A stretch of DNA of 64,000 nucleotides, taken from assembly GCA_965552055.1 (NCBI GenBank), contig CBEVQO010000002.1, positions 288,001 to 352,000 on the forward strand. Reading direction: 5' to 3'. The notes beneath the pieces were generated by a model that ran no database searches, was not told the origin of the DNA, and worked only from the letters and a program-made list of their open reading frames with translations. Every line of letters starts with the position of its first letter. The stretch's first letter is position 1. This stretch comes from an uncultured bacterium. GTDB lineage: Bacteria > Hydrothermota > UBA3073 > NMUJ01 > CBEVQO01. Shown here piece after piece: positions 5,098 to 64,000 of this stretch. Made by a program: the position numbers and the translations under genes.

Positions 5098-5232
5098 TTA
5101 AGATTCCTTTGGCAAAATATTACAATCCAATCCCCCTATCTCTGCTATTGATACACATTTGCCACATGCCTGAGCTATTACATAGATTTTCTCACTTTTA
5201 CATTCGGGTTCATGCCATTCTTTCTTTTCCAT
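5098..5232 (-). CDS. Small Cys-rich peptide 1 (44 aa), RiPP-precursor-like: MEKKEWHEPECKSEKIYVIAQACGKCVSIAEIGGLDCNILPKES
   Basis: Translated by hand. AGGAGGT SD upstream of ATG 5232; overlaps the 3' end of the giant gene; paralog of peptide 2. Confidence 0.85.
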   Translation of the reverse strand: MEKKEWHEPECKSEKIYVIAQACGKCVSIAEIGGLDCNILPKES

Positions 5233-20200: not shown

Positions 20201-23200
20201 GTGCAAACTTACCCTGCCTATCATCCCAATTTCCTTCTATGTAATGTGTGTAAGACTGAGGAATAAATTCTCCACCCAAAATTGTAAAATCACCTGTGAT
20301 CTTTAAAGAAGTTTGTGCTACTACACAATTTGTAACATTTATTTCAACATCAGCAAATTGATTATTCGCACCTTGCCATACATTTGAAGAATCACCATCA
20401 AATACAAACTTGCCAGAAGTTAATAATCTTCCTCCAGTATCATCGTAATCACCACCTACTCTATGTGTATAACTTCCGGCATCGTAACATCCTCCTTGTA
20501 TCTCAAAGTTTCCTTTCACAGTAATATCCGAAAGCGCCCATACTGTATCTGACACATTTATAACAAGATTGTTGAAGTAATCTCCTGTTAATAGTGTTAT
20601 CCTTTGTGTATCTCCATCGAAGATAAAAGTACCTGCATCTGCCCTAAACACTCCACTTATATTTTCAAAGTCGCCAGCTATTGTATGAGTAAAAGATTGG
20701 GGGTCAAATTCACCTTCCCTTATTCTTAACTTACCATCTATATCGAGCGAAGAATAGGCAACAACTTTCCCTGCTAGTTTATAAATATCAAGGTCATAAA
20801 TTGAACTGCTATCCGTTATCTTTATAGATTGATTATATTCACCTCTGAAACATAATTTACCTGTCCCGGGAATCAGCTTACCGTTATCTTCAAAATTACC
20901 AAAGATGTAAAGAACATTTGACTTCAATTTTAACTTTGCACCTGGATTTATCTTTACACTAAAAGCATATCCTGCAACATCAAGCACAGGGTCTCTTATA
21001 GTATCTGGTATTACTACATCTGAAGATTCATCTGGTACTCCTGCTGGCTTCCAGTTATTGGGATTACTCCACAAAGAGTCAACCGCTCCTGTCCAGCGTT
21101 TCTGTATGAGCCATTTTATCTCCGCACCATTTGTCTCTTCATCGTAAGCCTCTCCTGCTTTAGGACCGCTATACCCCGACACAAAAATTTTAACATTACC
21201 ACCTGCACCATCAGCATGGATATTTGTATCACATGTAGCATCAAAATATAAACCTATTAAAGTAACATTGTAAGTCCCTTGCCTATAAATATGCAAATGA
21301 GTGCTCGGATTACCACCAGGTTCAACATTCTCAAAAATAACATTGGAAATATTTTGTATAACTGCTGGCGTATCTATTACCATTCCTTCACTATTAGCAT
21401 AACTGAAATAAAGTTTTGTAATGTTTACAGTTCCCCTTATTTTAAATGAATAGTAAGTTGATGGAGATATGGATGTAACTGTAGGCGCTGCTCCCTCCGA
21501 GATAAACGAACCTGTTTCTCTTATAAGTACTCCTTTTGCTAACCTTAAAATAGAACTACCATAAAGATGCAAAACTCCATCACTCACAAGATTGCCTACC
21601 ACCACTAGATCACTACCTGATACATTAAGCTCACCCGATTGACCAATATAGACGCTATCTTTTAAAGTATCGTAGTAACCTGTTGAAAGATCAAATTCTC
21701 CTGAAACAACTTTTAGTAAACTATCCACTATTAATTTGCTGCTCATTAAAGCTGTACCTGTCACATTTATCGTTAACCTATTAAATTTATTACCCGAACC
21801 AAGATTAATTTGAGGAGATGTGCCTGCAAATACTATTTCGCCAGCTGAAGGAGAAAATGCACCCCCTGATACATCGAAATCTCCTTTTATTGTGTCAACA
21901 TAATTTCCAGGGTCGAAGCTTCCACCGTTTATTATCTTAAAATCGCCAAAAATTCTAAGACTCGTATTTGCTACTGCGTTTCCTCCATCAATTGTTAAAG
22001 AATAGAAATTATTTGTAGATGATGTTGTTATCTGAGGATTTGCTCCGGTTAAAATTATTTCTCCTGCTGTCGGTGTAAACTCAACTTGCGTATCATCCCA
22101 ATTCCCACTTATCCTGTGAGTATATGAACCTGGGTCAAATTTCCCACTTTCAAGATAAAGTGCACCATTCACAGTTATATTACTTAATGCTGTGACAGTA
22201 TTTGTGGGTCTTAAGATTAAATCATTAAAATAGTTGCCCGCACCCTGTGTAATTTGCTGGTTAACTCCACAGAAAACAATGCCTCCTTGAGATGCTTTGA
22301 AAATACCGCCCGCATCAGACCAATCTCCTTTTACAGTATCTCTGTAAGGCGAGGGTATAAATGTTGCATTATTTTGAATTGAAAAATCACCATAAATTGC
22401 AATACAACTTTCAGCTTCTACTGTATCTGCAACAATCCATAAGTTATAAAAATGATTTTGCGGTGAAGTGTAAATATATGTATGTGTGTTTCCACCAAGT
22501 TCAACACGCCCTGCATTTGGCTTAAATTCTCCATTTGTAACATCAAAATTACCTTTCACTTTCAATACATATGATTGTGGGTCAAAATAGGCATTTTCCA
22601 ATGTAAAATCACCATCAATAGTGAGATCGGACAACATTCGAATTGTATCACCCGAAAGCACCTCAAAGTCATAAAAACTATTTGTTGATAACTGTGTTAC
22701 TTTAAACAAAGAATTTGTTGTTGAAATACTTATTTTACCTTGACCATGCTGGAAAGTGCCTGCTTCTTCTAACCACTCTGTTCCCGAAAGATTTATTGTA
22801 TTGCCATTTTGATTGTAAGTGCCATTCTTCAAAACGAATTTTCCTTGAACCGTTATTGAAGTAACCTGGATAACAGTACCTGTTGCATTTATCACAAGAT
22901 CATTTAAATAAGATGTAGCACCTGTAACTTGTAAAGTCTCTACGCTACTTCCTGCAAATATCACACAACCTGTTCCACAATCAAAGTTCACTACCTTAAA
23001 ATCGCCTTTTACTGTCAAAGTCTCATCCTCTGCTCGACAGATACCAGTAGAAGTAACTACAAAATCATTTTCACAGGTTATATCTGTCTTCAAAGTACAC
23101 TCACCTGCTATTTCAAGGTTATAATAGGTCTCATCGGGTACGCCCATATCACCGGCAAGGACGACCGTACCCGTGCCATAATTGAATACACCATTATTTT

Positions 23201-28897: not shown

Positions 28898-29278
28898 GTG
28901 GAAAACTATCTTAATTTACATCTTCAATATTTAAAAGAAGGGAGAAATCTTTTAAAAGATAAAAATTATAATCAGGCAGGTGAAAAATACTGGGGGGCTG
29001 TTGCAACTCTTATAAAGGCTGTTGCAGATAAAAAGGGTAAAAAATTAATGTCCCACGGAGAAATATGGAAATTTATAAAGGAAATAGCAGATGAAATGAA
29101 GGAGGAAGGCATTATAAACCTCTTTGGCAGTGCCAACAATCTTCATCAAAATTATTATGAAGGATGGTTGCCTCCTGAAGTCGTAAAAAAATATGCTGAA
29201 GATTGTGAAAAATTAATCGATAAGCTGAAAAAATTTTACAAACTGGATGAAAATGGAGAAAATCAAAATAAAAATTAA
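28898..29278 (+). CDS. PaREP1/HEPN-like family protein
   Basis: QAGEKYWGA...IKA and ANNLHQNYYE motifs typical of the archaeal PaREP1 family; AAGGAG SD. Confidence 0.8.
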   Translation: MENYLNLHLQYLKEGRNLLKDKNYNQAGEKYWGAVATLIKAVADKKGKKLMSHGEIWKFIKEIADEMKEEGIINLFGSANNLHQNYYEGWLPPEVVKKYAEDCEKLIDKLKKFYKLDENGENQNKN

Positions 29279-46689: not shown

Positions 46690-47340
46690 TTACTTCAAAA
46701 ATTTAAATATTGCCATCAATGTAGCGATTATGATGAACCAGATATTTGTATTCCATGTAATGATATTAAATCTTTTATCCATATCCTGGCGTAACTCATT
46801 TATTCTTTTATCTGTATCTTCACGCATCTCTGTAAATCGACGATTCATCTGGTCAACCAACAGCTCAAATCTCTTATCCAAATGTCTCATTAATTCTTCA
46901 AATCGACGATTTGTTTCTTCTCTCATCTCTGCAAACCTGCGGTTGTTCTCCTCCATCATTTCCTCAAACCTGCGGTTTATTTCTTCAAAACGTCGGTTGT
47001 TCTCTTCTCTCATCTCTTCAAACCTGCAGTTTATCTCTTCAAAGCGTCGGTTGTTCTCTTCTCTCATCTCTGCAAACCTGCGGTTGTTCTCCTCCATCAT
47101 CTCCTCAAACCTGCGGTTTATCTCTTCAAAGCGTCGGTTGTTCTCTTCCCTCATCTCTTCAAATCTGCAGTTTATCTCTTCAAAGCGTGCATTCATATCT
47201 TCCCTCAATTCATCTGTCCTTTTATTTATAGTCTCGATAACCATCTTATAAATGTTTAGCATTTCTGGCGTTAACCCCATATCCATTAAAGTTTCTTTTA
47301 CTATCCTTCTTACATCTTCTTCGGTCAGCGTTTTTGACAT
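46690..47340 (-). CDS. Membrane-anchored coiled-coil repeat protein (DUF1640/CCDC90-like architecture)
   Basis: Mixed 7- and 11-residue RFxEM/I repeats followed by a C-terminal hydrophobic anchor (IWFIIIATLMAIF). Confidence 0.75.
   Translation of the reverse strand: MSKTLTEEDVRRIVKETLMDMGLTPEMLNIYKMVIETINKRTDELREDMNARFEEINCRFEEMREENNRRFEEINRRFEEMMEENNRRFAEMREENNRRFEEINCRFEEMREENNRRFEEINRRFEEMMEENNRRFAEMREETNRRFEELMRHLDKRFELLVDQMNRRFTEMREDTDKRINELRQDMDKRFNIITWNTNIWFIIIATLMAIFKFLK
46906..47187 (-). repeat. Intragenic tandem duplication, 2 x 141 bp, built of 21/33-bp subunits
   Basis: The 47-aa unit RFEEINC-RFEEMREENNR-RFEEINR-RFEEMMEENNR-RFAEMREE(N/T)NR occurs twice with near-identical DNA. 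Confidence 0.9.
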
Positions 47341-52297: not shown

Positions 52298-54754
52298 TCA
52301 CAAATTTTTACTCTCAATTATCTTTTTTATTTCTTTTACAAATCTTTTCTTATCAGAATATAAACACTCTTCCATTGTCTCCCATATTTTTGCATTTTCT
52401 TTATCAATCTGCTTATAATACGATAAATAAAGTTTAAGCCCTTCCTTAGGAGTTTTTCTCGTAATTTCTCTATAAATCTTTTCAATTTTATTCACAATAG
52501 AAGGATTTATGTAATAAAATGTACTTTCTTCTATTGGAAATCCTTCAAATTGTTTAATTTCTATTTCTTTTTCTAAAATAGATGAATCGTTTAAGTCATA
52601 AGCAACAACCTTAAATATATTTTTCCCTAATTTTAATTGCAATGAAAGAATTAAGTCTATTTCTTTTTTATCAAACATTTTTCTTATCAATAAACTATCG
52701 TCCCAATAAAATTTTACTTGTTTAACCAAAGTATCGTCTTTCACTTTTACTTTTACTTTAATTATGCTATCACAAATTACATTTGGAATTTTAATGCTAA
52801 TTTTAGGCAATGTGACATCATTATAAAACTTAAAAGTTTTACTCATAAAGCCTTTATCAGTTTTCAATACCCATTTTATTGATATTTGATTTAGCATGGG
52901 ATTAAGGTAATGTCTGGTTAATATGAGAGGTAAACTTGTAGTTGAAAGAACGCGGTCATTTATTTTTACAATTAATTTTTTAATATGTCTCCTGTGTGAG
53001 CAATCAATCACCACTCTGTCTTCTTTCTTCTTTATTATAGGCTCTATTCTTGTAATTTTCAAAGAGTATACTCTCTCATTTCCGTATTTATCTAAAGCAA
53101 TGAGATTTACTCTCGAGATTTTTTCTTCTTGTAATTTATCGGTTAATAAAAAGAAATCTTCCTTTAGTTTTTTACTACTTATTTCTCTTTTAATTATTCT
53201 CTCATAAGAAGTATTCGGAGTAAAAACCGAACATTTTACAGTTGAAAGCATTGCATTATCCTCCACATAATATGATAACAATAAACTATCATTAATTATT
53301 TTATAATCCGCCATTTTAATTACCGGGGGCAATAAATCAATATATTTTTCAAAATCTTTAACCCACTTCCCTCTCCCTTTAAACAGAAGTAATTTTAATT
53401 TAAGGGTAGTTGCTAATGGTTTATTGATATAAATTGTCAGCTTATTTTTAGTACAATGATATTTATAAGGTATTTTACTCCTTATTTTAAGCGAGTCACA
53501 CTCACATTTTATCTGGATTTTGTTTCTCTTTTGCATTAATGCTAAATTTGGTTCTGACAATTCTATTTCTTCCCTTCTCACATTATTTGCTTTATCAAAT
53601 GCTATCAAATAAAGTTTTTCGTTTTCTCCTATTGGTAATGTTTTTTCTCCGCTCGCATCTATTTCATAAGTATTATCAGTTTTTAGAAAAACGCTGGATA
53701 TCGAAAAATTATCCTCTACTTTCCATTTGATTTTTATTTTGTCTCTTTTTATTTCATAAGAATAAAATATTTTGGGCGGGTTCTTATCCCATAATATTAC
53801 CTTTTCCTTTTCATAAGTTAAACCTTCTTTCAAGAATACTCTTAATTTAATTTTATGTTTTCCTTCTTTCGAAATAAATTTTTCTAAATTTAACTTTATT
53901 GAGGGAGATTTAGTTACCAGAACCGAGCGTCCATCAATAAAAAGAATTGCTTTTTTAAAAGGAAAGTTAGTCAATACTTTTACTTTAAATTTTGAAGCTC
54001 GGGGACCCCATTCCCTTCTTTCCGGAAATTCTATTTTTGCAATATTTTTTGTAACTGTAAGAGAATATTCTTTGTAAAAATCACTGAATGCCAAGATATA
54101 ATTATAATTACCGCTGGGTAAAATAAATTTCTCGGTTGAGAAAATACCATCTTCTTTTAATCCATCATTATGTTTTCCGTCATCATATAAAATGATTTGC
54201 TTATTAAGAGCTGGAATTATACATTTACCTACTGTATCTCTTATCCGGGTAGTGTACACCATCAGTTTTAATGTATCTTTTAATGCGTACCTTTCAGTAG
54301 CAATCTTATATTTAGTATTAAGTATCTTGATACCTTTAATGCGAGGTCCGAACATCCGTTTAGTTATATAAACTCCTGAAATAAAGGAAAATAAAAGTAA
54401 AAATGGAAGAGAGAGAATAATTGTTTTTACCACTTTTAATTGCTTCGTTATTTCTCCGATTATTTCAAAAATTTTTGTCTTTAAATTCTCCACAAAGTTA
54501 TTTACTTTTTCTTCAGTATTTTTCATCGAATAACTTAAATTTTCATTAAAATCGGTCAATATTTGTGAAATCTTTCTTTTGAGTTCTTCGTTCAATGCTC
54601 TAGTTATTTCCGGAAAAACTTCTCGTTTAAGCATTTCTTCTTTTAATTTGCAGACGATCGCCACTACCTGATCCACTAAAACTCTATCCCAGAATTCTTT
54701 TAATATCTCTTCTGTCTTCTTTTTTAATAATTCAAAAATTTCATCCCTTTTCAT
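52298..54754 (-). CDS. Single-pass membrane protein (818 aa): cytoplasmic helical N-terminus, extracytoplasmic Ig-like repeats
   Basis: TM segment IILSLPFLLLFSFISGVYI; LYDDGKHNDGLKEDGIFS Ca-binding-like loop; repeated DxxPPxI...VEDN...AxDxxxN Ig-type motifs. Confidence 0.7.
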   Translation of the reverse strand: MKRDEIFELLKKKTEEILKEFWDRVLVDQVVAIVCKLKEEMLKREVFPEITRALNEELKRKISQILTDFNENLSYSMKNTEEKVNNFVENLKTKIFEIIGEITKQLKVVKTIILSLPFLLLFSFISGVYITKRMFGPRIKGIKILNTKYKIATERYALKDTLKLMVYTTRIRDTVGKCIIPALNKQIILYDDGKHNDGLKEDGIFSTEKFILPSGNYNYILAFSDFYKEYSLTVTKNIAKIEFPERREWGPRASKFKVKVLTNFPFKKAILFIDGRSVLVTKSPSIKLNLEKFISKEGKHKIKLRVFLKEGLTYEKEKVILWDKNPPKIFYSYEIKRDKIKIKWKVEDNFSISSVFLKTDNTYEIDASGEKTLPIGENEKLYLIAFDKANNVRREEIELSEPNLALMQKRNKIQIKCECDSLKIRSKIPYKYHCTKNKLTIYINKPLATTLKLKLLLFKGRGKWVKDFEKYIDLLPPVIKMADYKIINDSLLLSYYVEDNAMLSTVKCSVFTPNTSYERIIKREISSKKLKEDFFLLTDKLQEEKISRVNLIALDKYGNERVYSLKITRIEPIIKKKEDRVVIDCSHRRHIKKLIVKINDRVLSTTSLPLILTRHYLNPMLNQISIKWVLKTDKGFMSKTFKFYNDVTLPKISIKIPNVICDSIIKVKVKVKDDTLVKQVKFYWDDSLLIRKMFDKKEIDLILSLQLKLGKNIFKVVAYDLNDSSILEKEIEIKQFEGFPIEESTFYYINPSIVNKIEKIYREITRKTPKEGLKLYLSYYKQIDKENAKIWETMEECLYSDKKRFVKEIKKIIESKNL

Positions 54755-56834
54755 GATATTTCCTCCTTATTTTCCTTATTTTTTCTATTTTTCTACTACA
54801 AAATTCCACTTTTTTATTCTCTTCGTTTATTCTTCTAATGAGTAATTCTTTTTCTCTATTTATTTCTTCCTCAGTTCTTTCTAAATCCTTTCTCAAAGTA
54901 TCTATTTGAGAATCAATTTCTTTAATTTTTCTTTTTGTTTCTTCCTTTATTTCTTTCTTGATTTCTTCACAGATTTTTTTACTTTTCTTTTTTACTTCAT
55001 CTTCATCAAATTGTTCATTAAATTTTTCAAATATCTCTTGTACTATTGATTTAGCATCTCTTTTTGCCCTTCGCCAATAGCAGAGACATTTAGCCGTAAA
55101 TGGTTCAGTCCAATCTTCTCTTTTATAGCCCCAGTATTCTGAATCTTTATTATCGATTTTCATTTTACACCAATTTACATAAGGCTCCAATTGCATTAAT
55201 CTAAATTTATTTATAATCTTACGCAAAACATTATTATTTTTTATTTTCATCTTACAATAATTCCTCAATTCTTCTCTCTTCTCTTCTAATAAATAACGCA
55301 AATCATTATCAAAATAATTTTTTACTTTTTTGTATTTTTTAATACCTAAAATGGTCTCGCCGGGTTCACATCTAATCTCTATGTCTTCCAAAACATCTTC
55401 ACATTCGCTTTCTATTTTTTGTTTCATCATGTTTATAGTATCTACGGCTTCCTTTTTATCTTTTTCAACTTTCTCTAATTTTATTCTTTCTTTTTCTTTA
55501 ATTATTCTTTTCATCTCCTCCAATCTACTTATTTCTGCTCTTAACCTTTCTTCCCTCTGGGTCTTTTCTTCTTCGAGCGCTTCTTTTCTTTTTTGCAAAC
55601 TTTCCATCATTTGACGATGATGTTCTTCTTTTTCTTTTAATTTTTCGAGCACTTCTTGAACTATTCCTAAAAGAGGTTCTTTGATCAAAGGTTCGTGCTT
55701 TTTCTCTAAATGAGATTTCAAATCGGATACAAATTTTTCCCATTCTTTGTCCTCTTTTCCTTCTTTTACATTTTTCACTGAGACAAAATAAACTTTTGAA
55801 ATTTTATAATCTTTTAACCATTTAAGTACAAATTCTCTTATTTCTTTTATTGCCTTCTCTCCTCCTTCTGAATATGGAATGTCTTTTTTGTTAATCACAA
55901 AAAATACCCTCTCATTCATTTCTTCTTTTCTATCAATAGTTGGTTTTATCAAATTTAAAATACAATCGAGTATTTCTTTTACATTTTTATTAAAACCTCC
56001 TTTTTGTCCTGGTGCCACGATTATAAAAGCATCACTTTTTATTATTTGGTCTACAGCTATTCCCGTATGTCTTTTTATTAGCGAATGAGTACCTGGAGTA
56101 TCAACTACTTCCACATCTTTCAAAATATCGAAAGGATATTTTACCTCCACTCTATTTATCAAAAAACCATACAAAATATCATCATAAGTTTTATATTTCT
56201 CAACTTTGGTCAGTAACTTTGATTCTATTGCCTTCATTTTTTCATAATCAAAATAAACTTTTACATTTTGTGGATATTTATCAGTAAACTCTTTTAAAAT
56301 TTCCATCTTCTGCTCCTCTTGTAACTTTTTGGAATATTCATATATTTTTTCTTTTATTTCATCCATGTAATTTTTCAGTTGTTGAGAGGAAATTTTTTCT
56401 TTTGTTTGTTCATTTTGAGCATATTTTATTAACCCATCATTTATAAACATTGTCAATGCTTTTATTGATTCATTTTCGGGAATTATCTTAACTCTTTTTT
56501 CATCTATTTCAGTTTTATATAATGTAAAACTTTGTTCTTTTTCAAAATATATTTTTTTCTCTTTTTGCCCGTAATGCACAAAAGTCACAGCACAAGTAGT
56601 AGGAGTAGGTCCTTCTGGTAACATGTCTTCTTTCAATAAACAATTTAGCAGAGAAGATTTTCCAGCCGAAAAAGGTCCTGTTACAGTAATATAATATTTC
56701 TCTTCTTCTATTTTCTTCTTCACCTCATCTATTCGCCTTAAAAGTAAAGGCAAGGGAATATCCTCTATCTCGTTTTTAATCTTCGTAAGCAGATTCTTTG
56801 CACGCATTTTACTTTCATGATGTAATGTTTTCAT
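54741..56834 (-). CDS. Dynamin-like GTPase 4 (canonical motifs, long coiled-coil C-terminus)
   Basis: G1 GPFSAGKSS, G2 PTPTT, G3 DTPG, G4 INKKD. Start placed at ATG 56834 after AGGAGG. Confidence 0.9.
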   Translation of the reverse strand: MKTLHHESKMRAKNLLTKIKNEIEDIPLPLLLRRIDEVKKKIEEEKYYITVTGPFSAGKSSLLNCLLKEDMLPEGPTPTTCAVTFVHYGQKEKKIYFEKEQSFTLYKTEIDEKRVKIIPENESIKALTMFINDGLIKYAQNEQTKEKISSQQLKNYMDEIKEKIYEYSKKLQEEQKMEILKEFTDKYPQNVKVYFDYEKMKAIESKLLTKVEKYKTYDDILYGFLINRVEVKYPFDILKDVEVVDTPGTHSLIKRHTGIAVDQIIKSDAFIIVAPGQKGGFNKNVKEILDCILNLIKPTIDRKEEMNERVFFVINKKDIPYSEGGEKAIKEIREFVLKWLKDYKISKVYFVSVKNVKEGKEDKEWEKFVSDLKSHLEKKHEPLIKEPLLGIVQEVLEKLKEKEEHHRQMMESLQKRKEALEEEKTQREERLRAEISRLEEMKRIIKEKERIKLEKVEKDKKEAVDTINMMKQKIESECEDVLEDIEIRCEPGETILGIKKYKKVKNYFDNDLRYLLEEKREELRNYCKMKIKNNNVLRKIINKFRLMQLEPYVNWCKMKIDNKDSEYWGYKREDWTEPFTAKCLCYWRRAKRDAKSIVQEIFEKFNEQFDEDEVKKKSKKICEEIKKEIKEETKRKIKEIDSQIDTLRKDLERTEEEINREKELLIRRINEENKKVEFCSRKIEKIRKIRRKYHEKG

Positions 56835-57702
56835 TTTCACCTCCTTTTAACATCTCCATTCCTTTTAGTAAAAACCATAATGTAAAAACTTCTCCTAATG
56901 TATCAATCTCGTTCTTTACTTTATTCAAAATCCTTCTGATTTTGTCCAAATAAAATGCCGAACATTTCTCCAAAATTATTTTTAACACATCGTTCACATT
57001 AGTATGAGAGAACTTAACTATGTCCTTTTTACTGCAATTAAAATCTTTGAGGATTTGCTCCCTCGTCAATCGCACAAACTCATCCTTCCTTTCACTTTTT
57101 TCGTAATTTATTGCAAAGATAACTTCTTTGTTTACCCCAATTTTTATTTCTTCCACATTTTGACAGAAAAACGCATAATCTTCTCCCTCCTGGTGTATTA
57201 CTAAATTAATTAAATTAATGTCGGGACTAGTTTTAGAAACAAATTCCGGTATTTTATTCACATATTTTTCCCAATTTTTCTGTATTTCATCCTCTGCACT
57301 CCCCCAGCCCGGTGTGTCAATAAACCGGCAAATTAATAAAAGAGGATGATTATATTCTATCTCAGCATAAATAATTTTATTTACTTCATTCTGTGCCTTT
57401 TGATAAGATGCTACTTTTTGCCATTTCTTTTTATCATATATTGTTTTTTCATCACCATTCTCATACTTTATAAAAGCCCTAAAAGATTCTCCGTACTTCA
57501 CTAAAGTGAAAAAATAAGAAGTAGAAGTAAATCCCATAGGTACCAAATGTTCTGATTCTTTCGTTATATCAATATCTAGAAGTTTATTGATAAGTAAAGA
57601 TTTCCCCGCTTTATCACTCCCCCATATACCAAAAATTAATTCCGGCTCATCACTGCATAAGATCTGTTTTTTTACAAAAATTAAGTCCTCTAACTTTAAC
57701 AT
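56815..57702 (-). CDS. Dynamin-like GTPase 3 (short, degenerate)
   Basis: G1 GSDKAGKS, TLVKYGE, HPLL..CRFIDTPG; G4 degenerate (INYE); little stalk. Confidence 0.75.
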   Translation of the reverse strand: MLKLEDLIFVKKQILCSDEPELIFGIWGSDKAGKSLLINKLLDIDITKESEHLVPMGFTSTSYFFTLVKYGESFRAFIKYENGDEKTIYDKKKWQKVASYQKAQNEVNKIIYAEIEYNHPLLLICRFIDTPGWGSAEDEIQKNWEKYVNKIPEFVSKTSPDINLINLVIHQEGEDYAFFCQNVEEIKIGVNKEVIFAINYEKSERKDEFVRLTREQILKDFNCSKKDIVKFSHTNVNDVLKIILEKCSAFYLDKIRRILNKVKNEIDTLGEVFTLWFLLKGMEMLKGGENENITS

Positions 57703-59261
57703 TTTATTTCTTCCTTTATTCTTTTAATCTCTTCTTTTATCTCTAATATTTCCTCATATTTTCTTTTTACATTTTCTAATTCTTTTTGATATTTATTTGC
57801 ATCAATTTTTGCATTTATTTGCTGTATATATTTATTTATTGCTTCTTGAAGATGCTCTTTTATCGCTTCCTGTGTCTCTTCGCATAAAGTATCAAGAATT
57901 TCATTAACCTTATTTTTGATACTACGCTTTTCCACTTCTTTTAGTACATTTTTCAAAATTTGACCGGTATATTTAAATACTCTCTTAAAAAATATCTTCC
58001 AGTTTTTTATTTTATCCATCTCCTCGGATCTTATCTTTTGCCCCGAAGATTTTTTCGAAAATTTCTTTACCAACTTTTCGGCTAATTTCTCCGAAATAGA
58101 GTCTAGTATCTCTTCTACTTTTTGATTTATTTTTTCTTTCCATTCCTCAGGCAAATTTTCAAAAATTTCTTCTATTTTAGAAATAACAGGCACAGGTAAT
58201 TTACCTTCCTCTTCTTTTGTTTCTATCTCTATTGGCATAATATCTATATTTTGCAATATACAAAACTTTTTAACTACTTCTTTAATTCTTTCACTAAATT
58301 TTGTCTCGAAATTCTGAAGCCATTCCTCGGGATATAAATTTTCATTTATCTCCAATTCACGCTCAAAATTTATTTTTCCTTCTTTTATTATACTTTTCAC
58401 TTCTATTAATACTCCTTCAAGCATATTTTGTAGCAAATGCATTCTCTTTTCCAGAGCAGATTTTACTCTCTTAACTCTTTCTGCTTCTTTTTCGCTTTCT
58501 TTCAATTTTTCTTCAATTTTTTTGAAGGTCTTATCGGCTAATTTTTCGATATTATTAATAAAAGTCTTCAAATGTGTTTGAGAGCCTTTTTGCTCTAAAA
58601 AATGCTCTAAATATTCTAAAAATCCTCCATCGATTTTATTCTTACCCGAAGTGAAAAACACGGGGAATTCCATACCCAAGTTTTTCTTAAAATTCGCAAA
58701 AAACTGCAAAAACTCCATTTTTGCTTCTTCTTTCACCTCGTCGATTTTATTCACAATTACAGCAAAATCTTTATTTTTTAAGTTCTTAATAAATTCTTTA
58801 ATTAAACCTGTCATAGGCTGTGAAGCTCTGGTAAAAACTGCAACAAAGTCAGCATATTTTACAAAAGAATTGGTAATTTCTGAAAGTTCTTTCTTTAAGG
58901 ATTTTAAACCTGGGGAGTCCACCCAGTAAATAGGGGGTAAATCCTCTTTCTTACATTCTAACGCATAAATATAATGTGAATTTAGAATCTTATTTAACTT
59001 TTGCGTCTTACCTTTATTTTTTATGAGTATAATCTTTTCAGTAGTGGGTAGCACATCTACTCTTAAATTCAGTTCAAAAAGAGAGTTCAAAAATGTGGTC
59101 TTGCCTGTGTTAAATTCTCCAGCAAACATTAGGATAAAAGGCTCCTGTAAAACTTCTTTTAACTTTTCGATTTCTTCTTTCTCATCGCAGTATTTCTGTA
59201 ACCTATCTGCCAAAGATTTACTTCTTTCTAATAAATTCATATAATTTTTCATCTCAAACAT
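57696..59261 (-). CDS. Dynamin-like GTPase 2
   Basis: G1 GEFNTGKTT, G2 LPTT, G3 DSPG, G4 VNKID. Start placed at ATG 59261 after GAGGAGG. Confidence 0.88.
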   Translation of the reverse strand: MFEMKNYMNLLERSKSLADRLQKYCDEKEEIEKLKEVLQEPFILMFAGEFNTGKTTFLNSLFELNLRVDVLPTTEKIILIKNKGKTQKLNKILNSHYIYALECKKEDLPPIYWVDSPGLKSLKKELSEITNSFVKYADFVAVFTRASQPMTGLIKEFIKNLKNKDFAVIVNKIDEVKEEAKMEFLQFFANFKKNLGMEFPVFFTSGKNKIDGGFLEYLEHFLEQKGSQTHLKTFINNIEKLADKTFKKIEEKLKESEKEAERVKRVKSALEKRMHLLQNMLEGVLIEVKSIIKEGKINFERELEINENLYPEEWLQNFETKFSERIKEVVKKFCILQNIDIMPIEIETKEEEGKLPVPVISKIEEIFENLPEEWKEKINQKVEEILDSISEKLAEKLVKKFSKKSSGQKIRSEEMDKIKNWKIFFKRVFKYTGQILKNVLKEVEKRSIKNKVNEILDTLCEETQEAIKEHLQEAINKYIQQINAKIDANKYQKELENVKRKYEEILEIKEEIKRIKEEIKC

Positions 59262-61015
59262 TGCTCCTCCTCTTTTATAACATCCATTGTCCTTCTTGTT
59301 AATTTTCTCAACTCTGTCCATTTATCCTTATTTTCTTCCAATTCTATTATTTTCTTATCTATCCCTTTTATTTTTTCGAGCATTTTGTCCTTTATCTTTT
59401 CAAAAGCTTCTCCAAAAACTTTTTTAAACTCCTCACACACTTTTTCTTCTGTCCTCTTAAACGCAATTTTCATTTCCGTATAAAGTTTGCTTTTCAATTC
59501 AACAAGTTTTCTTCTAAGAGTAAGAGAACCTAATATTATAATAATTATATCATCGATTGGACCAGGAATAAATTGAGCGATTACCAAAAGTATACTAATT
59601 ATGCCTATTTTTTGCCATATATCGTTAATAACATCAGCAATCATATTTTTTATTTCCTCTGGAGCTATTTCAGGTTTAATCTTTACCGGCAAACGCTCTA
59701 ACAAAGCGATTGTGAACTCCGATTCCATTAATTCTTTCACTTCTTTTTGTATTTTGTCCTGTATTTTTTCTACTTCGTGTTTTGTTTTTTCTTTTACTCT
59801 TTTCATCACTTCCTCTTTTAACTTATCTTTCTTCCTAAAATAGCTACTTATCTTACCTGTTATTCTCTCTATTTCGTTATACGATACCTCAAAATACAGC
59901 TCTCTCAGTTTCTTTATCTCATTTGAAATTATAAACTCAATTTTCTCTTCTATTCTTCTTTTTGCAGGATAGAGAGTTTCTTTTATATATTCATTTTCTA
60001 AACTTTTACGCTCATATAATTTTTCTAATTCACCTTTAATTTGTTCAATTTCTTTTACACAGATTTTATTCAATTTATTCAATTCTTTTTCCATTCCACC
60101 TAAAATTGATTTTATCTTTTGCGCTCTTAAACCTTTCACATTATCAAAAAACTCTTCTCGTAAGAATTTTATTAACGATAGGTATCCCCATCTATCTAAT
60201 TCTTTTTCATCAAAGCCATTTTTTAATATTTCTTTTACTTTCTTTGCGGAGTATAAAAATACTCTATTTTTCACCATCTCTTTACTAAAATTCACACTTA
60301 TCCAATCTTTTATTTTTTCGATATTTTCCTGTGATTCTTCTTGATCAATTTTGTTAATCACCCCCACAATACTTTTGCTGTATTCTTTTAACTCCTCTAT
60401 CAATGACTTTTCTATTTCCGAACCCGCTTGAGTAGCATCAAATATCCATATAGCAGCATTTACTTTCGGTAAATATTCATATACCACTTTATCGTCTAAT
60501 TCATAAGGAGAGTTAAATCCGGGAGTATTGACCATCACAAGATTTGTTAATTCTTTGCAGGGTAAAAATAACTTAATTATAGTTTCTTCTCTTTTTATCT
60601 TGTCCTCTTGATGTTTTATGTATTCCCATAAACTTTTTAAATCCTCTTTTTCATTTATTGCTATCTCCTTCTTTTTTGTTCCCATTAAAATCTCCGCTTT
60701 TATGTGTTCTCCATAATGTAATTCAGTAATAACTGCATCTGTCGGAGTAAATCCCTCTGGTAGTAATTGGTCTTCAATTAGAATGTGGTCAATTGCCTCA
60801 TTAGCTATTAACACCGAATTTATAAAAGTAGATTTCCCGCTCTTAGTTTCCCCAATTACCGCTAATCTAAATGGCTCTTCCACAACCTTTTTATATTTTT
60901 GCAAGTTCGAAAGCACCACGGGAATGAATGAATCAAGATTCTTGAATTTATCTGCCTCTTCAATAAAATTATCTATTGCACTAATTACTGCATTTTGTTT
61001 TATATCTGCAATCAT
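59249..61015 (-). CDS. Dynamin-like GTPase 1 with hydrophobic membrane paddle
   Basis: G1 GETKSGKST, G2 TPTD, G3 variant NTPG, G4 INKID; hairpin IGIISILLVIAQFIPGPIDDIIIIILGSL. Confidence 0.9.
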   Translation of the reverse strand: MIADIKQNAVISAIDNFIEEADKFKNLDSFIPVVLSNLQKYKKVVEEPFRLAVIGETKSGKSTFINSVLIANEAIDHILIEDQLLPEGFTPTDAVITELHYGEHIKAEILMGTKKKEIAINEKEDLKSLWEYIKHQEDKIKREETIIKLFLPCKELTNLVMVNTPGFNSPYELDDKVVYEYLPKVNAAIWIFDATQAGSEIEKSLIEELKEYSKSIVGVINKIDQEESQENIEKIKDWISVNFSKEMVKNRVFLYSAKKVKEILKNGFDEKELDRWGYLSLIKFLREEFFDNVKGLRAQKIKSILGGMEKELNKLNKICVKEIEQIKGELEKLYERKSLENEYIKETLYPAKRRIEEKIEFIISNEIKKLRELYFEVSYNEIERITGKISSYFRKKDKLKEEVMKRVKEKTKHEVEKIQDKIQKEVKELMESEFTIALLERLPVKIKPEIAPEEIKNMIADVINDIWQKIGIISILLVIAQFIPGPIDDIIIIILGSLTLRRKLVELKSKLYTEMKIAFKRTEEKVCEEFKKVFGEAFEKIKDKMLEKIKGIDKKIIELEENKDKWTELRKLTRRTMDVIKEEEQCLR

Positions 61016-61191
61016 TTCCCCTCCTTTTCTATATCTTTTAAGATTTTATCTATTGTTTCGGCTACAATTTGCTTAATATTTTCAAAAGTTTTATTTAATT
61101 TTTCATCTGTGGTCTCGATGCAAAAATTTCTTAACTCTTTCAGTGAATCAATTAACCATTTTGTTTCCTTGTATAGTTTCTCCCTAAACAT
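61012..61191 (-). CDS. Small helical protein (59 aa): MFREKLYKETKWLIDSLKELRNFCIETTDEKLNKTFENIKQIVAETIDKILKDIEKEGK
   Basis: Hand-translated; fills the gap exactly; its stop overlaps the dynamin-1 ATG (ATGA) and its last codons carry that gene's SD. Confidence 0.7.
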   Translation of the reverse strand: MFREKLYKETKWLIDSLKELRNFCIETTDEKLNKTFENIKQIVAETIDKILKDIEKEGK

Positions 61192-61198
61192 GTTTATT

Positions 61199-61420
61199 TT
61201 ATTCTATTCCTAGCCATCTAAATGGGCAAATTTTACAAACGATAATCCTTAAAAACCACGGCACAGGACAATTCATGCACGGATGAATAATGCCCTTTTT
61301 CGTCTCACCTCCTTCCTTTTTTATCACTTTTTCATCGTGAAGTTTATTTATTTCTTTCTCATATGCGTCTAAATTCCATTTATCAGTTATATTTTTAACT
61401 ATTTCAAATCTTTCTCTCAT
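61199..61420 (-). CDS. Small protein (73 aa) with two CxxC motifs
   Basis: HPCMNCPVPWFLRIIVCKICPF; translationally coupled to repeat copy C. Confidence 0.65.
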   Translation of the reverse strand: MRERFEIVKNITDKWNLDAYEKEINKLHDEKVIKKEGGETKKGIIHPCMNCPVPWFLRIIVCKICPFRWLGIE

Positions 61421-61673
61421 TTCCCCTCCTTTTCTGCTTCTTTTTCTAATTGTTCTGCTATTGTGCGCAGGGCTTCTGCTCCTGCTTTTAAGCCTGCTTT
61501 CTTCCAGAAGTCCGCTTTTTGGTAGCGTGATTTGCCATCCTTATCTTCCTGTGTGCCTTCTTCCATAAAATCTTTTACAAACCTTGCCATCACTTTACTT
61601 GCGAATTCCTCCCAGAATTCCTGTCTCTTCCAGAAAGGTACTTTTTCCTTTTCACTCATATCCCCCTCCTTAT
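61407..61673 (-). repeat. Dispersed direct repeat, copy C (~266 bp, includes the 80-aa ORF, its SD and the next gene's first codons)
   Basis: Identical to 62246-62511 except one substitution in codon 2 and one extra G in the SD run. Confidence 0.95.
61417..61659 (-). CDS. Repeated 80-aa amphipathic helical protein, copy C
   Basis: SD AAGGAGGGGG; ATGA overlap with the downstream gene; two paralogs nearby. Confidence 0.85.
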   Translation of the reverse strand: MSEKEKVPFWKRQEFWEEFASKVMARFVKDFMEEGTQEDKDGKSRYQKADFWKKAGLKAGAEALRTIAEQLEKEAEKEGK

Positions 61674-61676
61674 TAA

Positions 61677-61703
61677 AACTTAAATGAGTTACAGCAATGT
61701 CAA
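61677..61703 (-). promoter_or_regulatory. Possible internal promoter TTGACA-N15-TAAGTT upstream of copy C and the dynamin genes
   Basis: TTGACA 61703-61698 and TAAGTT 61682-61677. Partly inside the 43-aa ORF, so it may be coincidental. Confidence 0.4.
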
Positions 61704-61820
61704 CAAATATATTCTAAAAGTTTGCTTTGGACCGATTAAATTAAATAAAGGAGCAAGTATTTTATAATACCAAGGAATAGGCAATCTAGGAATTCCTTTA
61801 ACAGTAATCGGCTTACTCAT
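61689..61820 (-). CDS. Small hydrophobic protein (43 aa): MSKPITVKGIPRLPIPWYYKILAPLFNLIGPKQTFRIYLLTLL
   Basis: Hand-translated; AAGGAGGT SD upstream of ATG 61820; shares a PxPW motif with the 73-aa ORF. Confidence 0.65.
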   Translation of the reverse strand: MSKPITVKGIPRLPIPWYYKILAPLFNLIGPKQTFRIYLLTLL

Positions 61821-61830
61821 ATGCACCTCC

Positions 61831-62259
61831 TTATAACCCATATTCTGATGGATTTAATCTCCTTTTCTCACAATATCTTTTTAAATCTTTCTGTACAAGT
61901 TTAATGCAAAGCGCAATTACAGTAGCATCGTCGAGATACCCTATGACAGGAATAAAATCAGGAACAATATCCCAGGGATTGATGAAATATATTAAAGCTG
62001 CAGCAACAGCTGCAATAGTATACCACGGAACATCAAAATCGCCTTTGAAAGAATCTCTTAACATTTCGTATAAGAGCCTTATTTGCATCCCAAGTTTTAC
62101 CAACCAATCTATTGCTGAATCTAGCAAGCCTGCCTTTTCGAGTTTCTTAGGAGTCGCCTCAATTGCGTATTTTACATCTTCTTTGTCAACATTTTCCCTT
62201 GCTTTGTTATACATTGCTTCTATTTTTTTCTTCTGTTCATCGGTTAATCTTTCTCTCAT
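61831..62259 (-). CDS. YkvA/DUF1232 family membrane protein
   Basis: ALIYFINPWDIVPDFIPVIGYLDDATVI signature. Confidence 0.92.
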   Translation of the reverse strand: MRERLTDEQKKKIEAMYNKARENVDKEDVKYAIEATPKKLEKAGLLDSAIDWLVKLGMQIRLLYEMLRDSFKGDFDVPWYTIAAVAAALIYFINPWDIVPDFIPVIGYLDDATVIALCIKLVQKDLKRYCEKRRLNPSEYGL

Positions 62260-62511
62260 TTCCCCTCCTTTTCTGCTTCTTTTTCTAATTGTTCTGCTAT
62301 TGTGCGCAGGGCTTCTGCTCCTGCTTTTAAGCCTGCTTTCTTCCAGAAGTCCGCTTTTTGGTAGCGTGATTTGCCATCCTTATCTTCCTGTGTGCCTTCT
62401 TCCATAAAATCTTTTACAAACCTTGCCATCACTTTACTTGCGAATTCCTCCCAGAATTCCTGTCTCTTCCAGAAAGGTACTTTTTCCTTTTCACCCATAT
62501 CCCCTCCTTAT
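62246..62511 (-). repeat. Dispersed direct repeat, copy B
   Basis: Near-identical to 61407-61673 and 63356-63590. Confidence 0.95.
62256..62498 (-). CDS. Repeated 80-aa amphipathic helical protein, copy B
   Basis: SD AAGGAGGGG; ATGA overlap with the ykvA-like gene. Confidence 0.85.
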   Translation of the reverse strand: MGEKEKVPFWKRQEFWEEFASKVMARFVKDFMEEGTQEDKDGKSRYQKADFWKKAGLKAGAEALRTIAEQLEKEAEKEGK

Positions 62512-63344
62512 GGCATCCAATGGTTTATTTCCCCAGAATTTATAAATTTTTGTAAAATCTCTATCCTTTTTGCAGAAGGAGGATGATCTGATTTTATCCG
62601 CTCCCACCACGATAGATGCTTTTCATACATCCCCATTTTTGAAAGACAGCTTATAGCATATTCAGGAGGAATACCCGCTTCTTGCATCAGTTTTACTGCA
62701 CATTTATCTGCACTCACTTCTCTATCTCTTTGCCTCTTTTGTCTTATTAAAGGAACTTTATCAAGCCAGCTATATATCTCAAAATGTCCCAAAATCATAT
62801 GAGAAATTTCGTGGCTCATTATAAATATTATTTCATTTAAATCCAAATATTTAAAAGAAGCAGGGGTGATTGCAATCTCGCCTATAAAAGCTGCCCCAAA
62901 CTGCTGCGGCTTTACACATGCATTTATAGCGTAATTCATATACTCCACAGGAGTACAGCCTGCTTGCATTGCTTCTTCTATAATCTCATTTTGATAGTAG
63001 GGACGCACTCTTACAAGATGCCAGTCTATATTTGAATGCTTCATTTTAATTGTTTGTGCCAGAGGCAAATAAAATATTTCATTCGCTATTTTATTTAATG
63101 CAATCAAACGTTTACTCCAGACATCTGACCAGCGCTTTAACTGCAACAGCGCAAGTACGATTATAGCAATATTTACAAATAATTGCCATTTGTGAAAGTA
63201 TTTGAAATTAAAATAAATACCTGTAAGGAGAAGTGCTCCTGTGAGTAATTTTTTAACTTTTGCTGTCACATCATATTCTCTTAATAAACCCACAAGGGTT
63301 AAAATTGCAACAGCACAATAAAGTCCAATCTTAACGGCGTTCAT
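62508..63344 (-). CDS. M48-family (HtpX/Ste24-like) membrane zinc metalloprotease
   Basis: Three N-terminal TM segments; YAINAC, HEISH (HExxH), REVSAD and SDHPPSAKRI. Confidence 0.88.
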   Translation of the reverse strand: MNAVKIGLYCAVAILTLVGLLREYDVTAKVKKLLTGALLLTGIYFNFKYFHKWQLFVNIAIIVLALLQLKRWSDVWSKRLIALNKIANEIFYLPLAQTIKMKHSNIDWHLVRVRPYYQNEIIEEAMQAGCTPVEYMNYAINACVKPQQFGAAFIGEIAITPASFKYLDLNEIIFIMSHEISHMILGHFEIYSWLDKVPLIRQKRQRDREVSADKCAVKLMQEAGIPPEYAISCLSKMGMYEKHLSWWERIKSDHPPSAKRIEILQKFINSGEINHWMP

Positions 63345-63582
63345 CCTTTTCCTCCTCTGCTTCTTTTTCTAATTGTTCTGCTATTGTGCGCAGGGCTTCT
63401 GCTCCTGCTTTTAAGCCTGCTTTCTTCCAGAAGTCCGCTTTTTGGTAGCGTGATTTGCCATCCTTATCTTCCTGTGTGCCTTCTTCCATAAAATCTTTTA
63501 CAAACCTTGCCATCACCCTGCCTGCGAATTCCTCCCAGAATTCCTGCCTCTTCCAGAAAGGTACTTTTTCCTTTTCACCCAT
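63331..63582 (-). CDS. Repeated helical protein, copy A (83 aa, divergent C-terminus)
   Basis: Same sequence as copies B and C except GR for SK and the tail EEEKDERR. Start placed at ATG 63582 after the GAGGGGG SD. Confidence 0.85.
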   Translation of the reverse strand: MGEKEKVPFWKRQEFWEEFAGRVMARFVKDFMEEGTQEDKDGKSRYQKADFWKKAGLKAGAEALRTIAEQLEKEAEEEKDERR

Positions 63583-63590
63583 ATCCCCCT
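63356..63590 (-). repeat. Dispersed direct repeat, copy A
   Basis: About 5 substitutions versus copy B over ~230 bp. Confidence 0.93.
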
Positions 63591-63596
63591 CTTTCA

Positions 63597-64000
63597 TTAT
63601 CTTATACGATGAGATGGAAATTTTATGACAAAGAAATTTAAAATTTTTTCATCCTGCACTACCCAGACCCATAAATCTTCCTTAAACTCAACCTCCCCAT
63701 AATTGGATATTTCTTTTCTTTTGCCATTTTCCACAATTATTTTTATATTTTCCTTTTCCGGTGCTCCTATTCGCAAATAATATTTACCACGCTTCTTTCT
63801 AATCGCAAACTCCATCAAACAACCATCAATTTTGCGTTTAAATACCTTTTCCTCTTTGAGAAAAAAACGCAAAAGTGAATCGGAAATCAAAAAATAGAGA
63901 TTAGGTGCCCTGCAAAAATTAATTTTAGAAATCTCATAAGGTATATCTAACTTTACTTTCTTTAATCTCCTTTTCAAAATCTCAAATCGCTTTTTCTCCA
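63597..64000 (-). CDS. Hypothetical protein, 5'-truncated by window edge
   Basis: Frame stays open beyond 63977 to the end of the window (EKKRFEILKRRLKK...). Confidence 0.55.
   Translation of the reverse strand, partial: EKKRFEILKRRLKKVKLDIPYEISKINFCRAPNLYFLISDSLLRFFLKEEKVFKRKIDGCLMEFAIRKKRGKYYLRIGAPEKENIKIIVENGKRKEISNYGEVEFKEDLWVWVVQDEKILNFFVIKFPSHRIR

Follow-up and report, generated by a model that had tools for sequence, protein, structure and literature searches.

A small orphan gene in three near-identical copies ahead of a dynamin-like operon in an uncultured Hydrothermota bacterium, with a possible origin in nested, target-duplicating insertions

Introduction

Duplicated bacterial genes can evolve under gene conversion, as do the two tuf genes of enterobacteria, and the polymorphic toxin loci of the contact-dependent inhibition (CDI), Rhs and Maf types contain arrays of orphan modules. 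Another described process is insertion with long target duplication, whose original description is reportedly that of Nobusato and colleagues in 2000. According to the portions of the study by Furuta, Abe and Kobayashi (2010, PMC2853133) drawn on here, direct repeats of 46 to ~420 bp lie on either side of the inserted genes, mobility genes are absent, the empty site of a related strain holds one copy of the repeat, the cases come mostly from naturally competent species and the mechanism is given as unknown. For bacterial dynamin-like proteins, DynA of Bacillus subtilis is connected with membrane integrity and phage resistance in the extracts considered of three sources (10.1101/2022.05.11.491447, PMC8844932, PMC12998192). 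The present work concerns a stretch of 64,000 nucleotides (nt) of an uncultured vent bacterium of the Hydrothermota (assembly GCA_965552055.1, contig CBEVQO010000002.1, positions 288,001 to 352,000), hereafter the window, at one end of which a 259-nt repeat occurs three times on the minus strand ahead of four dynamin-like GTPase genes. Every copy carries a small open reading frame (ORF), here called S, and every copy is followed by different genes. The array is interpreted below, with a certain preference, as the result of nested insertions that duplicated their target.

Results

Organisation of the repeat array

The repeat family comprises three direct copies, placed by a repeat search at 61407-61665 (copy A), 62246-62504 (copy B) and 63330-63588 (copy C) of the minus strand. 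In this search copies A and B are 100% identical without gaps, copy C is 91% identical over the whole 259 nt, and no inverted repeat of at least 30 nt is present between positions 58000 and 64000. Each copy consists of a ribosome-binding site, the ORF S of 80 codons, and the Shine-Dalgarno (SD) sequence and ATG of the next gene, exactly the unit delineated in a preliminary description of this DNA, which was also correct in stating that the cargo differs behind each copy (an M48 protease; a DUF1232 protein with an ORF of 43 amino acids (aa); a CxxC protein with a 59-aa ORF). The features of the array and of the operon behind it are listed in transcription order, all being on the minus strand.

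Beyond the window end, just upstream of p145, minus: 100-aa hydrophobic ORF, from the ORF list
63597..64000, continuing to C2:352034, minus: p145, a 145-aa ORF that precedes copy C, with no Pfam, NCBIfam or PADLOC family
63331..63582, minus: S copy C, 83 aa from the ATG preceded by an SD sequence; an upstream ATG would also permit a reading of 88 aa
62508..63344, minus: M48-family metalloprotease, 278 aa, with a hydrophobic N-terminus (Pfam Peptidase_M48, E 4.7e-12); unit 1, between copies C and B
62246..62511, minus: repeat copy B, with SD sequence, S ORF at 62256-62498 (80 aa), internal SD sequence in the last codons and ATGA overlap with the DUF1232 gene
61831..62259, minus: DUF1232 (YkvA-like) membrane protein, 142 aa (Pfam DUF1232, E 1.3e-14), its first 14 nt within the A/B repeat
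61689..61820, minus: 43-aa hydrophobic ORF with its own strong SD sequence; second gene of unit 2; a 50-aa reading from 61841 is possible
61407..61673, minus: repeat copy A, with SD sequence, S ORF at 61417-61659 (80 aa) and ATGA overlap with the CxxC gene
61199..61420, minus: CxxC...CxxC protein, 73 aa; first gene of unit 3, strain-variable, starting with the first 14 nt of DUF1232
61012..61191, minus: 59-aa helical ORF, ending in the same 19 nt (61012-61030) as S copies A and B
61031..61435, minus: 405-nt indel (CxxC gene, most of the 59-aa gene and one 19-mer), missing in metagenome contig L009 and in one contig of run X1
54741..61015, minus: dyn1 to dyn4, four consecutive overlapping dynamin-like GTPase genes, the operon body behind the array (dyn1 59249-61015; dyn2 57696-59321; dyn3 56815-57702; dyn4 54741-56840)
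Downstream of the dynamin-like genes, minus: 818-aa ORF, followed by a PIN-domain gene

The ORFs of copies A and B differ by one substitution, located in codon 2 (Ser/Gly), and the two copies differ in addition by a one-base shift in the G-run of the SD sequence. Their identity reaches 14 nt beyond the stop codon, into the first codons of the CxxC (MRERF) and DUF1232 (MRERL) genes, and it is because of this continuation that the two genes share their first codons. Copy C differs from A and B at seven sites, all of them transitions (six A>G and one T>C in the direction from A/B to C). Its homology stops ~20 nt before the A/B stop codon, its product ends in ...EEEKDERR and its ORF overlaps the start of the M48 gene by 14 nt. 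The preliminary description, in which the copies were lettered in transcription order (its A being the present copy C), was right in its counts apart from the substitutions of this copy, which it put too low, at about five. When the 2.23-Mb genome was searched with the repeat DNA, as that description had proposed, only the three copies and one 22-nt chance match were retrieved. No paralogs of the cargo genes were found in the genome, M48 being present as a single copy.

The junctions between the genes of the array are organised in a uniform manner. A strong SD sequence lies within the last codons of the upstream ORF at all four junctions concerned (copy C to M48, copy B to DUF1232, copy A to CxxC and the 59-aa ORF to dyn1), and at the same four the stop codon overlaps the next ATG or lies beyond it; at the last of them it is the 59-aa ORF stop that overlaps the dyn1 ATG. 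The stop codon TAA of M48 in turn overlaps the SD sequence of copy B. A 19-mer formed by the last codons of S (EKEGK), the SD sequence and the stop codon overlapping the next ATG occurs at three places only in the genome. The likeness of the junction motifs at the 5' and 3' ends offers a lead, namely that the array may once have been a pure tandem array of S; the start shared by these motifs is found at 4 of the 703 SD+ATG sites genome-wide. Promoter and terminator scans returned sites no commoner than in shuffled sequences. A promoter of the extracytoplasmic function (ECF) type upstream of the operon, judged by eye, was dropped as unsupported.

Support for the three-copy arrangement

The genome is 97% complete and comes from an assembly of the metagenome type, with 15 contigs. 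Its arrangement was compared with contigs of four runs from four studies (X1, X2, X4 and X5) over window positions 60600-62245, a stretch containing one copy; the run contigs were built at k=31 and cannot span the repeat. Loose ends of these contigs reproduce the junctions from p145 to copy C (four runs), from copy C to M48 (three runs) and from M48 to copy B (two runs). An independent metagenome contig of 1425 nt, L009, which is 99% identical, spans the 43-aa gene, the whole of copy A and the gene behind copy A, and thereby covers the junctions from the 43-aa gene to copy A and from copy A to the next gene. A contig of 4589 nt from another source carries a p145-like protein (a 138-aa variant), an 83-aa S and M48. 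Five of the six junctions between repeat and flank were thus seen elsewhere, the sixth, from copy B to DUF1232, lying outside the compared stretch. The three-copy arrangement is confirmed as real, and the assembly artefact that the preliminary description had named as a risk is contradicted by the recurrence of the junctions in contigs of other samples.

Strain variation and gene conversion

Strains differ at one junction of the array. By blastn against the genome, L009 has the order DUF1232, 43-aa ORF, copy A, dyn1, and lacks a 405-nt segment comprising the CxxC gene and the greater part of the 59-aa ORF. In run X1 a contig of 869 nt shows the identical joint, from 61011 to 61417, skipping the same 405 nt with both 19-mers at the edges, and the gap is bounded by these 19-nt direct repeats at 61012-61030 and 61417-61435. 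The CxxC/59-aa stretch is uncovered in X2, X4 and X5, which is not counted as absence; only the joining contig of X1 is counted. One contig of run X2 departs at 61053 into unrelated sequence and may represent a third arrangement. The earlier suggestion that the content of the array might vary therefore holds at this junction, where the unit of CxxC and the 59-aa ORF is present in some strains and absent from others.

The protein cluster of S contains seven sequences of two C-terminal types, an 80-aa type corresponding to positions A and B and an 83-aa type corresponding to position C. For residue 42 and likewise for residue 44, all four combinations with the C-terminal type are observed, in violation of the four-gamete rule, and residues 21-22 also occur in all four combinations with residue 44. 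In addition, site 61495 carries the same base in all three copies of this genome, the other base being found in L009, in all contigs of X1, X2 and X5 that cover the site and, in X4, in one allele of two. This pattern of concerted evolution supports the view, raised in the preliminary description as its alternative, that gene conversion keeps the copies alike; the variants are not assignable to single strains. A literature search on gene conversion among small operon-encoded proteins returned nothing related.

A proposed origin by target-duplicating insertions

The reading preferred here, held with slightly more confidence than doubt, is that genes were inserted in a nested fashion at the junction after S, that each insertion duplicated its target and that gene conversion acted afterwards. 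The landing site would be the place where the stop codon of S meets the start of the following gene, and the three S copies would represent duplicated landing sites. In one event M48 would have been placed behind S, with ~238 nt regenerated, from the SD sequence to ~20 nt before the stop codon, giving copies C and B. A second event would have brought DUF1232 and the 43-aa gene behind S and duplicated S together with 14 nt of the following gene, as repeats of ~273 nt, giving copies B and A; DUF1232 and CxxC would share their first codons because this event regenerated the first 14 nt of the following gene. A third and smaller event would comprise a 19-nt duplication of the last codons of S, the SD sequence and the ATG, and would separate the strains with and without CxxC and the 59-aa gene. 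Gene conversion would afterwards have held the copies nearly identical. Since the target carries an SD sequence, a full ORF and an SD/ATG overlapping the stop codon, an inserted gene would land in a coupled slot and S would be multiplied. We infer the order and mechanism of the insertions, as well as the translational coupling.

For the unit of CxxC and the 59-aa ORF, direct repeats flank the unit here and a form without it occurs in L009 and X1. The M48 and DUF1232 units are flanked by repeats of ~238 and ~273 nt, and other samples repeat the junctions from p145 to copy C, from copy C to M48 and from M48 to copy B. Related anatomy occurs elsewhere in the genome, as found by scanning the genome for exact, isolated repeats (17-45 nt) lying within 5 kb of each other. 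At G000:C4:165762-167477 an exact 23-nt repeat, consisting of the end of a purC-like gene, an SD sequence and the next ATG, brackets two inserted genes; the last inserted ORF and the purC-like gene terminate in identical residues, a likeness also seen between the 59-aa ORF and S. At G000:C3:261724-264332 an exact 31-nt SD+ATG repeat brackets three genes (543, 117 and 130 aa), and the genes behind both copies start with MRWCAL, as DUF1232 and CxxC both start with MRER. This second locus is a candidate for a further junction-duplicating insertion.

Several points weigh against nested insertion. An empty site for the M48 or the DUF1232 unit, of the order p145, S, next gene, was seen in no strain, and both of these events are deduced from the anatomy of the array. 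On the left, both large duplications are bounded at almost the same point, immediately ahead of the SD sequence, which is unexpected for independent events unless selection or microhomology at the SD sequence fixes the boundary. The shared 14 nt would fit only if CxxC preceded the arrival of DUF1232, in which case the strains lacking CxxC would be secondary deletions. CxxC and the 59-aa protein are found in the contig of this genome only, the protein cluster of CxxC consisting of that one sequence. The precedent concerns restriction-modification genes. Finally, the model leaves unexplained the high GC content at third codon positions (GC3) of S (0.40-0.44), and S itself is without relatives, with a function to be read from context only.

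S is a small gene without detectable relatives

S is a real, lineage-specific small gene. Every copy has a strong ribosome-binding site, and 11 of the 17 variant sites of S in other samples are synonymous. The RNA of the repeat folds no better than shuffled sequences (z -0.86), and Rfam returned no match up to E 1 besides two chance microRNA rows. The protein has a mass of 9.4 kDa and a pI of 6.4, with 36 charged residues out of 80 and 10 aromatic residues. An AlphaFold single-sequence model displays a two-helix hairpin (residues 13-35 and 49-78) with a mean predicted local distance difference test (pLDDT) value of 79. Fold searches with this model retrieved generic hairpins only, the best Foldseek match against the PDB having an E-value of 0.59 and the best VIA-align match a Z of 6.7, which is within the range common for helical models. 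A WXG100 assignment is not indicated, there being no family match and no WxG motif in the loop of the model; the fold matches themselves are generic.

Among 5.8 billion clustered proteins the only relatives of S were the seven sequences of its own cluster, in which S copy C is P0001. HMMER over 1.84 billion representatives returned this cluster and a 31-residue stretch of a repetitive 1058-aa protein (E 8e-4), which was taken as low-complexity noise and rejected as a relative. S was absent from the 40 related genomes, from the genome contig collection and from the viral contig collection, and the ESM Atlas gave no usable match. Nothing above threshold was obtained from Pfam, NCBIfam, PADLOC or PHROGs, the Pfam output including a sub-threshold TrbI row (E 0.009). 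Because no search found a relative, the function of S is drawn from context only; S may assist the membrane and dynamin-like proteins, perhaps as a common accessory required in quantity.

The other small proteins of the locus resemble S or one another little. S against the other locus proteins gave nothing below E 0.25, the comparison of the 59-aa ORF with S gave E 0.18 and that of CxxC with DUF1232 gave E 1.3, and p145 and p143 share a 14-residue motif only (E 0.016). The CxxC protein belongs to no family in Pfam, PADLOC, NCBIfam or PHROGs, the M48 protein has weak, sub-cut-off NCBIfam matches to HtpX/LoiP, and the 43-aa form of the small hydrophobic ORF is the representative of its protein cluster (P0018). 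The GC content of S is 0.42-0.45 against 0.28-0.35 in its neighbours, and its GC3 exceeds that of 98.6% of the long ORFs of the genome (mean 0.294, standard deviation 0.039), a value subject to the wide sampling error of 80 codons.

The dynamin-like operon and the DUF1232 neighbour

The four GTPase genes behind the array match Pfam Dynamin_N with E-values of 8.7e-19 (dyn1), 1.9e-08 (dyn2), 1.2e-05 (dyn3, below the cut-off) and 9.8e-17 (dyn4). PADLOC models matched dyn1 as LeoBC (5e-14) and dyn2 and dyn4 as LeoA (1.6e-11 and 4.4e-12), the LeoA rows extending mostly over the GTPase part. Only five distant homologs of dyn1 were obtained, 24-33% identical over 29-67% of the length; none of 40 related genomes contained one at E 1e-5, nor did the genome contig collection, and no orthologous operon was found for comparison. 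The window that contains the operon is ordinary chromosome, with genes for IF-2, NusA, prolyl- and threonyl-tRNA synthetases (ProRS and ThrRS), IF-3, L20, RNase Y and hydrogenase.

Dynamin_N genes are present in 10 of 271 other genomes of the phylum, in which three multi-gene clusters were examined. In genome G109 three dynamin-like genes are preceded, at a distance of two genes and on the same strand, by a gene for a DUF1232 protein 39% identical to that of the array (E 1.6e-29). By this gene order, DUF1232 is a recurring neighbour of dynamin-like clusters. No S-like ORF was found in G109 or in the other two clusters, which are also without a homolog of any array gene, and no literature linking DUF1232 with dynamin was found. 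At the downstream end of a dynamin-like cluster of another genome, after a WD40 protein, lies a 62-aa protein very rich in CxxC pairs (L032:568-756 (G089:C10), minus strand), which recalls the CxxC peptide of the array; sequence similarity between the two was not detected.

Just upstream of the window end, three overlapping genes occupy the minus strand at L005:1604-5001 (= G000:C2:352604-356001). One encodes an ECF-type sigma factor with a weak match to the type III-E CRISPR-associated RpoE-like model (4.3e-06), and the other two encode a 143-aa ORF without a family and a 765-aa TPR-CHAT protease (CHAT 4.1e-31; Csx29 model 1.7e-10). The trio resembles a Craspase signalling arm that has no Cas effector close by, and it may control the dynamin-like operon, which lies directly downstream.

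Alternative explanations

The strongest competitor, possible though doubtful, is that the copies are selected paralogs. S would then be a putative working partner, such as a chaperone, an adaptor or a subunit of the dynamin machine, and its three copies would be kept so that each drives or matches the translation of the gene behind it, or for dosage, their origin by duplication being incidental. All three copies are indeed intact, with strong SD sequences and coding constraint, and by reading of the translations the genes directly behind S have hydrophobic stretches (M48, DUF1232 and CxxC, and dyn1 in L009). The stop/start overlaps likewise suggest coupling, and S directly precedes dyn1 in L009. 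However, in three other genomes of the phylum the dynamin-like clusters are not accompanied by an S-like ORF, and one identical protein is unlikely as the specific partner of four unrelated proteins. Selection on the paralogs is compatible with nested insertion and does not exclude it.

A recombination cassette array, in which S would be a translated homology arm and expression adaptor, is unlikely. Such an array would correspond in function to an integrase-free integron, and a unit of S and cargo would integrate by a single crossover in S, excise as a circle, move between strains and be open to shuffling. A single crossover between a circle of S and cargo and a chromosomal S would yield exactly the order S-cargo-S that is seen. 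The copies are long and identical enough for RecA-type recombination, both cargo units behind the 80-aa copies begin with the same 14 nt, and the content at the last junction varies among strains, with the X2 contig that leaves at 61053 hinting at a third arrangement. The broader proposal is just as improbable, namely that units all starting with these 14 nt circulate among strains and re-equip a dynamin-like membrane-defence operon, S acting as capture arm and translational coupler. Against the cassette, the sole indel seen uses the 19-nt junction repeat and not whole S copies, and the loose ends at the S edges in four runs of four studies reproduce only the junctions of this genome. There are only three units, and because S was not found outside the species-level population no wider cassette pool is visible. 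DUF1232, moreover, is conserved beside the dynamin-like genes of G109, where S is absent. The preliminary description had proposed that cargo is captured, excised and shuffled through the repeat. The k=31 contigs of the four runs, which cannot span the repeat, contain no alternative order, no novel cargo at the S edges and no excised form, and since DUF1232 adjoins dynamin-like genes in another lineage, it is not arbitrary cargo.

The machinery of recognised mobile elements is likewise lacking in the places searched. Its absence nearby had been noted before and was upheld, neither a recombinase nor a terminal inverted repeat being found at the locus, and the 53 ORFs of the window and upstream flank that were scanned against Pfam (15 + 38) contain no transposase or integrase family. 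For an integron, PF00589 (Phage_integrase) matches occur on contigs C6, C7 and C9 only, with none on C2 and hence no IntI beside the array, and no attC-like element was recognised, there being no inverted repeat in the region given above, no unusual structure in the repeat and no Rfam match. A diversity-generating retroelement is not indicated, with no RVT_1 match in the genome at its stated completeness and with copy differences that are all transitions. Insertion sequences and miniature inverted-repeat transposable elements would bring inverted repeats, a transposase or dispersed copies, none of which was found. Pfam, PADLOC and NCBIfam identified no toxin/immunity pairs among the cargo.

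A very unlikely explanation reverses the roles and makes S the mobile unit, a small guest gene that copied itself three times into an older operon of the order p145, M48, DUF1232, 43-aa ORF, CxxC, 59-aa ORF and dynamin-like genes. The elevated GC content of S relative to its neighbours and the SD-like motif at both ends of the unit would suit such a guest, as would a pair of ~130-aa genes, 96% identical over 385 nt, that flank an unrelated 106-aa gene at G000:C10:62540-63630, a second instance in this genome of a small duplicated gene on both sides of another. It is opposed by the absence of inverted repeats, of a transposase and of any copy elsewhere in the genome, and it leaves unexplained both the 14-nt A/B identity that continues into different downstream genes and the missing native 3' end of copy C. 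An assembly artefact, in which the assembler would have put a single S in three places or made up the order of the units, could be suspected in a metagenome-type assembly of 15 contigs with a repeat exceeding the usual assembly k-mers, but it is extremely improbable given that five of six junctions recur in other samples or assemblies, that L009 spans copy A fully, that the copies differ from one another at fixed sites and that the assembled order is, by our own reasoning, the sole linear path using each unique segment once.

Other features of the window

Further features of the window lie away from the array. On the minus strand at 5178-23753 an open frame of 6191 aa has an N-terminal portion of 3000 aa without a Pfam match and C-terminal matches to PQQ-like beta-propellers, and the gene next to it, at 3477-4949, encodes a propeller with a type IX secretion tail. 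At 28898-29278 on the plus strand, the start of the threonyl-tRNA synthetase gene is overlapped by a small gene of the PaREP1/HEPN family (PaREP1 1.5e-23). Next to the [NiFe] hydrogenase genes, on the minus strand at 46690-47340, is the gene for a 216-aa protein that contains an internal tandem repeat and gives a match below threshold to apolipoprotein-like helical repeats. The genome as a whole is repeat-rich for its size, with 146 pairs of at least 120 nt at 90% identity or more, among them dispersed families of ~180 nt on several contigs.

Comparison with known systems

If the reading of nested insertions is right, operons in compact genomes can grow without the machinery of mobile elements. 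Stop/start junctions would receive new genes, and the duplicated junction would supply their translation signals, here in the form of a whole small gene. A multi-copy orphan protein, uniform through gene conversion, would arise as a by-product. Insertion with long target duplication would extend beyond restriction-modification genes, with at least three such loci in this genome. For dynamin-like systems, the locus offers DUF1232 as a recurring neighbour and, as candidate accessories, a small helical protein together with an M48 protease and a CxxC peptide.

The operon body resembles the LeoABC and 'Dynamins' (Eleos) candidates in its four dynamin-like GTPases with PADLOC matches to LeoA and LeoBC. 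In contrast to those systems, the matches are weak and partial, there are four genes instead of two or three, and M48, DUF1232 and S are additional. Among arrays, integrons share with the locus genes without evident promoters of their own, a recurring element between them and a content that differs between strains. Here, however, the recurring element is a translated gene, the units number three and one cargo or more is functionally part of the operon. The orphan modules of polymorphic toxin loci are comparable in having a conserved block ahead of variable modules, which provides homology for swapping, but the block of the present array is a complete small gene and not the end of a large toxin gene.

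The locus also resembles the two processes that the preferred reading combines. As in concerted evolution of the tuf type, paralogs within the genome are near-identical while strains differ, and mosaic variants extend across copies. In the present case, by contrast, three copies lie within 2.2 kb of one operon, with unrelated genes between them, and form an orphan family. With insertion accompanied by long target duplication, as portrayed in the portions of PMC2853133 relied on above, the locus shares direct-repeat flanks, a single copy in a related strain and the lack of a transposase, an integrase and inverted repeats; the repeat described there can also take in the 3' end of the upstream gene. 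The differences are that the cargo does not consist of restriction-modification genes and that two or three events would be nested at one junction. The target is a whole small gene with both translation signals, and the scar is a working extra gene. The 19-nt event, in addition, falls below the 30-bp threshold given in that source, and the large events are without a seen empty site. The arrangement is unusual but is built from known processes, being a variant of target-duplicating insertion joined to concerted evolution.

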